The notes below the pieces were generated by a model. The model ran no database searches, had not been told where the DNA came from, and worked only from the letters and a program-made list of their open reading frames with translations. The position numbers were made by a program, and so were the translations under genes. A stretch of 44,756 bases of DNA from a bacterium (GTDB lineage: Bacteria > Patescibacteriota > Minisyncoccia > UBA6257 > WO2-44-18), in contig JAHFLQ010000005.1 in the NCBI GenBank assembly GCA_023244815.1, positions 1 through 44,756 of the forward strand, in the 5' to 3' direction. Shown here one piece after another: positions 457 through 1,025 of this stretch. Positions within the stretch are counted from its first letter, which is position 1, and each line of letters begins with the position of its first letter.

Positions 457-485
457 TTGACTTATTCCAGATAATAATGTATATT
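457..485 (+). promoter_or_regulatory. sigma70 promoter P2
   Basis: TTGACT(457-462), 17 nt, TATATT(480-485). Confidence 0.65.
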
Positions 486-489
486 ACCA

Positions 490-556
490 GCACCGAAGTA
501 AGAGAGAAAGGTCGCATTGAAGAGGCGCTCTTTGGCTCTTACTTCGGGACAGTTTT
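490..556 (+). ncRNA. candidate small hairpin RNA 2
   Basis: Perfect 12-bp stem CCGAAGTAAGAG(493-504)/CTCTTACTTCGG(536-547) directly after P2. Confidence 0.4.
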
Positions 557-562
557 AAACTA

Positions 563-590
563 TTGACAAAATTTGGCGTGTTGCTATAAT
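563..590 (+). promoter_or_regulatory. sigma70 promoter P3 (extended -10)
   Basis: TTGACA(563-568), 16 nt ending TTGC, TATAAT(585-590); near copy of P1. Confidence 0.85.
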
Positions 591-596
591 CGCTGT

Positions 597-1025
597 AGCT
601 AATAGCCAGCTAAAAGCGAACCAAAAGCATCCCAAGTGGCACCCACCGATGTCGCTCATCGGTGGCAGGTTTGAGGAAGTATCCAGGCCCAATACGGGCA
701 TGGCCAGCGGTCCGGGGCGAACTGCTCCGATCTGCCCCGCTGGTAGGGTGGAGGTGCGCACACACCGTCCATCTCTGGATACTTCTGGGGCTATGACCGG
801 GCCATAGAGGCTCGGCTCACCTGTCCGTAGTTTCGCGGGGAACGCCCGCGAAATGACCGGAGAAAGCCCACTTTTCTACCCTGGAAGGGCTGGGGTCGCT
901 AACGCGACTCCTCGTGAGGTCGGCTCGCTCAGTCGTTTAGCGACTGGGGAACGACTACTCTTCCAAATTTTGCCCCGCCTCCATCAAATGAAGTAGATGA
1001 TGGATCGTGGGGCTTTTTATTTTTT
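597..1025 (+). ncRNA. candidate large structured RNA (~420 nt), family not recognised
   Basis: Lies between P3 and a terminator; no sense ORF of 60 aa or more. At least 9 stems, e.g. CCACCGATG/CATCGGTGG, GAAGTATCCAG/CTGGATACTTC, TTTCGCGGG/CCCGCGAAA, GGGGTCGC/GCGACTCC, CAGTCG/CGACTG. Confidence 0.6.
972..1025 (+). terminator. intrinsic terminator of the large RNA
   Basis: GCCCCGC..TCCATCA/TGATGGA..GTGGGGC then TTTTTATTTTTT. Confidence 0.75.

Follow-up and report, generated by a model that had tools for sequence, protein, structure and literature searches.

In this study, we analysed a window of 44,756 nucleotides (nt), the whole stretch of DNA considered here, which represents contig C12 of the 15-contig bacterial genome G000 (597,801 bases, 96% complete) from groundwater. 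The genome measures 0.6 Mb, and those of its relatives range from 0.3 to 1.5 Mb; these sizes and the groundwater source are consistent with the phylum Patescibacteria. Within the window, an intergenic gap of 930 nt separates a small membrane-protein gene from a glycosyltransferase gene (1171-1902, Pfam GT2), and this gap houses a large RNA on the forward (+) strand at 597-1025. As predicted from its signals and its relatives, this RNA is a real gene belonging to a new RNA family, with good comparative support and a narrow distribution, while the gap itself is an island of predicted RNA genes that vary among the four species of the genus.

The analysis of the transcription signals recovered all three elements that a preliminary description of the window had proposed, namely a perfect TTGACA/extended TATAAT promoter, a GC-rich stretch following it, and a U-tailed terminator. 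The promoter at 563-590 (+) combines TTGACA, a 16-nt spacer, and TATAAT, agrees with the sigma-70 consensus at 12 of 12 positions, and carries a TG ahead of its -10 hexamer (TGcTATAAT); eight such perfect matches occur in total across the 597,801-base genome, this one among them. Its position would place the start of the RNA near A597. From there to position 1025, the G+C content is 57.3% vs 48.1% genome-wide, and the stretch finishes in a hairpin at 972-1013 followed by UUUUUAUUUUUU at 1014-1025 (fold −22.5 kcal/mol, z −4.1), which a simple terminator scanner overlooked because of its long loop. The homologues in the genomes G001 and G017, described below, likewise finish in GC hairpins with U tracts at the corresponding position. 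In its own genome, the large RNA is a single-copy element without repeats. The sequencing runs listed as containing its sequence include three DNA runs and no RNA run; the three are groundwater metagenomes of one study, two of which may be the source of this DNA.

The structured, non-coding nature of the stretch was also evident. The + strand of 597-1013 folds to −205.6 kcal/mol, vs −159.9 +/- 6.3 in 100 dinucleotide shuffles (z −7.2; 0/100 shuffles fold as well), in agreement with the stem-rich RNA described initially. The opposite strand yields a fold z of −5.0, and we took the + strand as the RNA strand because about 19 cells of the consensus core pairs are G-U, which would appear as A-C mismatches on the other strand. 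The sense open reading frames (ORFs) comprise 52, 44, and 47 amino acids (aa), so that the earlier statement that no sense ORF reaches 60 aa holds, and the longest antisense ORF comprises 68 aa. Because no ORF within the RNA matched a Pfam family above threshold, and because the translated similarity among the homologues is scattered over several frames and both strands, the RNA was judged to be non-coding. A small-protein reading was accordingly rejected on the grounds of ORFs shorter than 60 aa, no Pfam family, and translated similarity that is not frame-specific.

BLAST comparison of the RNA against 61 related genomes returned short weak matches only. Homologues were found by synteny, using the glycosyltransferase gene, present in 20 of the 21 genomes of the family, as an anchor and comparing the regions upstream of it. 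One congener, G001, carries the whole RNA at the same locus with 64% identity over 324 nt; a second, G003, carries only the 3' domain (domain B) and not the core; and a third, G002, has neither. A two-sequence covariance model of the 5' half (R2), built without G017, then detected the core in G017, a member of another genus of the same family, at 59.9 bits (E 1.9e-10), and this detection is therefore independent. The G017 RNA spans ~640 nt between a 12/12 TTGACA-16-TGcTATAAT promoter on its 5' side and a clean terminator on its 3' side, and it occupies a different locus, between mreB and a gene for a DNA polymerase III delta-prime-like protein. The window, G001, and G017 share the features by which we propose to define the family: a core of ~220 nt with the junction strand AGGUUYGARG, a four-way junction of P2 and P2a-c, a second junction closed by GGGGCU...AAAGCCCA, and covarying helices. 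They score 187-223 bits with a three-sequence core model (R3), specifically 222.5, 201.1, and 186.6 bits, respectively, from a model that all three served to build.

The structure was further strengthened by comparison of the aligned sequences. With the caveat that the counted structures were derived from the same alignments and that each count draws on just three related sequences, the core (71 pairs, 91.8% of cells paired) contains 19 pairs changed on both sides, against 8.4 +/- 2.0 in column shuffles (0/500 reach 19) and 1-6 in slid registers, and domain B (32 pairs in the window, G001, and G003; 91.7% of cells paired) contains 10, against 4.3 +/- 1.5 in shuffles (0/500 reach 10) and 0-3 in slid registers. 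The 11-bp helix that the preliminary description had drawn between GAAGTATCCAG (676-686) and CTGGATACTTC (775-785) is present, with nine pairs retained in all three homologues and three of these nine kept through changes on both sides. The second closing helix drawn there, CGGCTCAC/GTGAGGTCG, had to be abandoned, as it forms two of eight pairs in G001 and is absent from the minimum-energy fold; comparison instead backs GGGCU (788-792)/AGCCC (865-869), termed P3, as the closure of the second junction and 883-891/957-965 as that of domain B. P3 and a possible long-range closure of the core never covary and are conserved but unproven. Overall, most helices appear to be kept through compensatory changes, which gives the predicted structure good comparative support, and the suggested search for covarying homologues has thus been answered by G001, G017, and G003. 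These data also bear on whether the locus might be a non-functional G+C-rich relic or a chance structure. Close relatives do without the RNA, as such a reading would allow, but 10 helices held by compensatory changes across 64%-identical sequences, a perfect promoter kept in two genera, and contigs from two runs and part of a third run of the one study that agree without variants, which argues against an assembly artefact, leave this explanation hardly credible.

The predicted RNA is modular, being composed of a P1 hairpin, a ~220-nt core of two multi-helix junctions, an ~85-nt domain B, and a terminator (Table 1). The loop of P1, GUCGCUC, is identical between the window and G001. Domain B is built around two look-alike hairpins, B1 (892-911) and B2 (928-948), with GUCGC/GCGAC stems, and its strand CUCGUGAGG is invariant in the alignment of the window, G001, and G003. 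The P2c loop region holds GCGCA in all three core homologues, of which GCGC is self-complementary.

Table 1. Predicted features of the large RNA and of the region directly upstream of it (window coordinates)
Feature	Position	Strand	Remarks
Weaker promoter-like site	457-485	+	TTGACT-17-TATATT; 10/12 matches; directly 5' of hairpin element
Hairpin element	493-547	+	55 nt; apical motif AAAGGUCG..UUGAA.A.GCGC; fold z −4.9
Perfect sigma-70 promoter	563-590	+	12/12; same architecture before the G017 homologue
5' leader	597-642	+	Poorly conserved; no G001 counterpart; weak structure only
P1 hairpin	643-665	+	9-bp stem; 5/9 pairs changed on both sides, window vs G001
Conserved core	666-884	+	~220 nt; alignments of window, G001, and G017 and consensus fold
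Four-way junction	P2 676-684/777-785 (closing); P2a 686-699; P2b 703-744; P2c 746-774	+	
Second junction	P3 788-792/865-869; P3a 797-815; P3b 824-861	+	GGGGCU pairs with AAAGCCCA; P3b long
Possible long-range closure	666-669/880-883 and 673-675/874-876	+	Invariant
3' domain B	883-965	+	~85 nt; outer helix 883-891/957-965, inner helix 918-923/951-956
Intrinsic terminator	972-1025	+	Hairpin 972-1013; UUUUUAUUUUUU 1014-1025

A further module may lie upstream of the perfect promoter. By alignment, each of the genus's four genomes carries one copy of the 55-nt hairpin element; an exact-pattern search found it in 4 of 401 genomes of the order, all from this genus, and in 0 of the 397 others. A promoter equivalent to that at 457-485 precedes it in G001, G002, and G003. 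In G001, the sole promoter found is the one preceding this element, upstream of both the conserved hairpin and the RNA, and hairpin, core, and domain B appear to form a single transcript of ~465 nt; in G003, domain B comes directly after the hairpin element. Because no other promoter was found there, the element appears to act as the 5' module of the downstream RNA in these two species. The window additionally has the perfect promoter between the hairpin element and P1 and may therefore give rise to a longer and a shorter isoform (about 530 and about 425 nt), with the site at 457-485 as a possible upstream start of the longer one. Given the position of the G001 promoter, the start of the RNA may thus lie further upstream than the preliminary description had put it.

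This modularity raises the question of whether the stretch instead comprises two or more functional RNAs (hairpin element, core, and domain B) that lie one behind the other or are separated by cleavage of the transcript. Such an arrangement would fit the separate occurrence of the modules, with G003 having domain B but no core, G017 a core but no domain B, and G002 just the hairpin, and the window's second promoter between hairpin element and core would fit it too. However, core and domain B are not separated by any promoter or terminator in the window or in G001, and P1 (loop GUCGCU) and domain B co-occur in the window and G001 and are both absent in G017, a co-occurrence that hints at joint working (n = 3). 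On balance, we consider independent RNAs improbable. Beside this, it was observed that a structured stretch downstream of the G017 homologue (L039, − strand, about 1290-1085) contains GCGACUUAGAAAUGUCGC and GACUCGUGAGAG, which recall the GUCGC/GCGAC hairpins and CUCGUGAGG of domain B; the domain B model (R1) gave it no score.

To place the RNA among described classes, covariance models and gene finders were applied to the window, the homologous loci, and the genome. Rfam 15 returned no match at gathering score across the whole 44.8-kb window, so that the Rfam comparison proposed earlier produced no significant match; a permissive scan of 450-1180 (E<=10) gave two chance-level rows, at 15.8 bits (cut-off 64) and 13.4 bits (cut-off 120), and the three homologous loci gave eight rows, all far under their cut-offs and mostly over terminators, with none relevant at E<=1. 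The models are likewise silent where the preliminary description had seen no hallmarks of RNase P RNA, tmRNA, signal recognition particle (SRP) RNA, T-box, or group II intron. The genome's RNase P RNA lies at C11:54648-55001 (94.5 bits, E 3.6e-30) and is the sole match to RF00010 at E<=10, while neither RF00010 nor RF00011 matches within 450-1180 even at that threshold. Membership in this class was rejected since no model matches, the core occurs in just 3 of 21 family genomes, and the real copy resides on C11. The genome's tmRNA is found at C2:5103-5421 (124.9 bits), and tmRNA (RF00023) was rejected in view of this copy and of negative Rfam and ARAGORN results in the window, where ARAGORN reported 0 tRNA or tmRNA genes. 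With a best blastn E of 0.8, the RNA was also rejected as a paralogue of the RNase P RNA or tmRNA of its genome. The initial designation as an unclassified large non-coding RNA (ncRNA) is therefore supported by the silence of Rfam, by RNase P RNA and tmRNA genes located elsewhere, and by covarying homologues.

Several further candidates were tried. The SRP RNA models (RF00169, RF01854) found nothing in the window or in the whole genome, and this class was rejected for want of a model match and as Ffh and FtsY domains were not found in G000. The 6S RNA model (RF00013) also found nothing in the window or whole genome, and 6S membership was rejected for this reason and for the fold, which is multi-branched and not a rod with a central bubble. 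OLE, ROOL, GOLLD, raiA, and HEARO were rejected as no model matched on the window or the homologous loci. OLE is typically accompanied by the gene for an OLE-associated protein, ROOL and GOLLD lie in phages or prophages, and HEARO accompanies IscB. Unlike these settings, the neighbours of the RNA are housekeeping genes and no phage match was found; specifically, the genes found beside it across the window, G001, and G017 encode the membrane protein, the GT2 glycosyltransferase, GreA, LysS, MreB, and the polymerase III delta-prime-like protein, where the window gene is one that we take to be lysS from its translation, outside the coverage of the family scans. An anti-Shine-Dalgarno sponge was rejected because the GGAGGUG of P2c is not conserved in G001 or G017, and a CsrA-type sponge because the GGA motifs lie outside hairpin loops.

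The remaining form of this idea, a duplicated or strongly diverged representative of a known class (RNase P-like, 6S/Ms1-like, SRP-like, or an orphan Rfam class), derives some appeal from the roles of 6S and SRP RNA, which look unfilled since their models find nothing in the genome. Moreover, GAGGAAGUAUCC..GGGCA (GAGGAAG..CC..GGGCA) loosely and superficially recalls RNase P CR-I. Against it, no relevant Rfam family appears at E<=1 in the window or the three homologous loci, the dissimilar RNase P RNA lies elsewhere, the GAAGUAUCC strand pairs locally and not as a P4-type long-range helix, and the multi-branched fold contrasts with the 6S-type rod. SRP RNA would not be expected either, because the SRP proteins were not found, nor would 18 of 21 relatives be without a housekeeping RNA. 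This explanation is largely refuted, and only a slight chance is left to it.

Separately from the identity of the large RNA, the SRP protein-targeting pathway itself seems to be missing in G000 and its relatives. The SRP54-type GTPase domain (PF00448) was not found in G000, exceeded its cut-off in none of the 21 family genomes, and gave one weak partial match of 28.9 bits among 91 genomes of an order sample; five complete genomes that represent other orders of the class yielded no match (0/5). In G000, the Ffh M domain (PF02978) and TIGR00064 (ftsY) had no match, TIGR00959 (ffh) reached 15.7 bits only, and a regular expression for the G3 motif hit no real ORF; SRP RNA (RF00169) was found in 0 of 21 family genomes. 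The same searches were positive in 13-14 of 14 control genomes. In the literature searched, no paper was found that states a loss of SRP in such bacteria.

The position of the RNA upstream of the glycosyltransferase gene suggests another possibility, in which it would be a cis-acting leader, that is, a giant riboswitch or attenuator governing glycosyltransferase-greA-lysS by termination or read-through. In its favour, the RNA is co-oriented with these genes, lies 150 nt upstream of them, and finishes in a terminator, as attenuators do. However, a TGtTATAAT at 1155-1163 precedes the ATG of the glycosyltransferase gene (1171) by exactly 7 nt, and the gene lacks a Shine-Dalgarno sequence. In G001, G002, and G003, a hexamer that resembles a -10 element and follows a TG (TATAAT, TACAAT, TATACT) is found with the same 7-nt spacing. 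Because this extended -10 element ends 7 nt before the ATG, the glycosyltransferase mRNA is probably leaderless, and the arrangement recurs in all four genomes of the genus. G002 and G003 lack the core yet retain the gene; the gene that follows the RNA in G017 is unrelated, and about 280 nt with additional hairpins separate the two; and no T-box or riboswitch model matches the RNA. To our knowledge, known riboswitches are all far smaller than about 425 nt, which we also counted against this possibility. Riboswitch, T-box, and attenuator membership was thus rejected on the gene's own promoter, its persistence without the core in G002 and G003, and the lack of an Rfam cis-regulatory match. Because the RNA has its own terminator, its downstream genes differ between genera, and the glycosyltransferase gene has its own promoter, we do not regard the RNA as a leader, and a regulatory role of this kind is very improbable. 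As an observation in its own right, a stable hairpin at 1077-1140 (GCUAUCCUU...AAGGAUAGC inside GGCC...GGCC; z −3.7) is situated past the terminator of the RNA and ahead of the promoter of the glycosyltransferase gene.

The distribution of the RNA was next considered in genome samples that overlap, the order sample including just 7 of the 21 family genomes. R3 matches in 3 of 21 family genomes and in 1 of 151 genomes of the class sample, which is its own genome, and R2 matches in 2 of 151 genomes of the order sample; the core was found in none of about 290 other genomes sampled from order and class. R1 matches 3 of the 21 family genomes, each of them from this genus, and 3 of 151 genomes of the order sample, one of them a weak 24.2-bit match in G091, at whose locus R2 finds nothing. 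A look-alike of the 5' end occurs in G006 (L011, − strand, about 1555-1460), just after a 118-aa ORF without known family, where the hairpin is followed by CAGGUUUGAGGAAG (CAGGUUUGAGGAAGAAUCUAGCCCC) and runs straight into a terminator; it is probably a truncated deletion relic, and R2 does not detect it. Beyond these genomes, 50,697 phage records showed no match to the RNA, and a pattern scan of viral contigs gave 0 matches. In JGI metagenome contigs, a first pattern gave 0 matches, though it recovers all three known members, and a second, looser pattern gave six, none of them confirmed by R3. A 16-mer scan of genome contigs produced at least 119 matches in unrelated phyla, all taken as chance, the pattern being too unspecific. 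Within the genus, the intergenic island looks like a hotspot of ncRNA gain and loss.

Such a distribution would also be expected if the RNA were part of a mobile, defence, or toxin-antitoxin-like element, acting as guide, antitoxin, or template for a protein partner that is encoded elsewhere or lost. The patchy spread (core in 3 of 21 family genomes), a locus that is not the same between genera, modules that come and go inside one genus, and the G006 relic with its hairpin, CAGGUUUGAGGAAG, and terminator all point in this direction, and the absence of the core from congeners keeps a defence or mobile-element origin alive. On the other hand, no transposase, nuclease, or reverse transcriptase gene adjoins the RNA in the window, G001, or G017, its single copy is not accompanied by repeats, neither the phage records nor the viral contigs contain it, and the models for HEARO, group II introns, and similar elements are silent. 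We therefore hold such an element to be unlikely.

Taken together, we favour the reading that 597-1025 (+) represents a genuine, independently transcribed, structured ncRNA gene of an undescribed, narrow family whose product would act in trans as a scaffold, and we assign this reading as a whole a probability of roughly 0.55. Because the promoter is a perfect consensus, the RNA is presumably made in large amounts. Our best guess is that it would serve as a stable scaffold, binding one or more proteins or pairing with itself. Candidate protein sites would be the invariant single strands and the twin GUCGC/GCGAC hairpins of domain B. Together with the matching GUCGCU loop of P1, these hairpins could represent repeated protein-binding sites or, alternatively, a tertiary contact between the P1 loop and domain B. 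The self-complementary GCGC in the P2c loop region could mediate kissing-loop dimers. Since the core is missing from two of the genus's four species, the role of the RNA is likely accessory and not essential.

Several points weigh against this favoured reading. The start site, 3' end, and abundance are all deduced from sequence signals, and the true transcript may be longer, beginning at the promoter at 457-485, or may be cleaved into its individual modules. The comparison draws on three full or core homologues plus a partial one, all from a single family; the covariation statistics rest on three related sequences, and the E-values of the models are rough. Neither a conserved neighbour gene nor a candidate protein partner was identified. 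The scaffold and self-pairing ideas draw on invariant motifs, which are unable to covary, and the absence of the core from 18 of 21 family genomes would suit a selfish, defence-related, or decaying element just as well.

Comparison with known systems places the RNA closest in gene organisation and fold to the large, intricately folded bacterial RNAs. New classes of such RNAs are rare, and the known ones include ribozymes, ribonucleoprotein scaffolds, and self-assembling RNA cages. Like the raiA motif, OLE, ROOL, and GOLLD, it is predicted to be a stand-alone gene of several hundred nt with its own promoter and terminator, many helices, and multi-helix junctions joined by invariant strands; no conserved protein gene adjoins it either. 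Unlike them, it matches no Rfam model, has no phage or prophage context, is far narrower in distribution (3/21 genomes of one family), and belongs to an ultra-small groundwater host. It resembles bacterial RNase P RNA (RF00010) in size (about 350-420 nt), high G+C content, multi-domain build, and predicted stand-alone transcript, but differs in the local helix formed by the GAAGUAUCC strand, in lacking a model match or sequence similarity, and in not being universal among relatives. With 6S/Ms1 it would share a stand-alone nature, a strong promoter, and presumably abundance, in a genome where the 6S role is formally vacant; however, its fold is multi-branched in place of a long rod with a central bubble, RF00013 does not match, and most relatives lack it. 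Several large orphan bacterial ncRNAs reportedly assemble into RNA-only homo-oligomers (PMC12286853), and the GCGC of the P2c loop was flagged for this reason.

Such considerations underscore the wider relevance of the locus. Because a 0.6-Mb genome leaves little room for ballast, a 425-nt RNA with a consensus promoter and a structure conserved across two genera would point to unexplored RNA-based biology, and the gain and loss of modules among sister species offers a natural experiment for assigning roles to domains, while the narrow distribution limits generality. A bolder proposal is that the family would be the first class of large "ornate" RNAs confined to ultra-small groundwater bacteria of the Candidate Phyla Radiation (CPR) type, with a stand-alone two-junction core of ~220 nt that self-associates through the P2c GCGC, or that is catalytic or ligand-binding, and with P1, domain B, and the 5' extension of G017 as exchangeable tuners. 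We regard this as speculative and on the whole doubtful. If true, a 425-nt RNA kept behind a perfect promoter in a 0.6-Mb genome seemingly without SRP would imply an important lineage-specific function, for example, in a symbiotic lifestyle. The literature searched yielded no large structured RNA for ultra-small, host-dependent groundwater bacteria, with overlap with unnamed supplementary motifs being possible. A term search of the main text of one such source (PMC11109978) gave 0 occurrences of CPR names.

Other RNA-like units were observed in the intergenic islands of the genus. In the window, a second perfect promoter, TTGACA-16-TGcTATAAT, is located at 318-345 ahead of a structured stretch of ~100 nt, and the resulting unit at 318-452, closed off by a GC-rich terminator of 11 bp at 416-442, is regarded as a candidate small RNA; the syntenic regions of relatives yielded no homologue of it. 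In G003 (L018, about 946-1180, +), the same island contains a G+C-rich RNA-like unit of ~215 nt, and a similar ~215-nt unit is present in G002 (L015, reverse strand, about 2652-2897, corresponding to positions 830-1075 of the re-oriented upstream region). These two units, both in congeners without the core, each come with a separate TTGACA promoter and with a CCCnGGGGUGCGCACCCCnGGG-type terminator.

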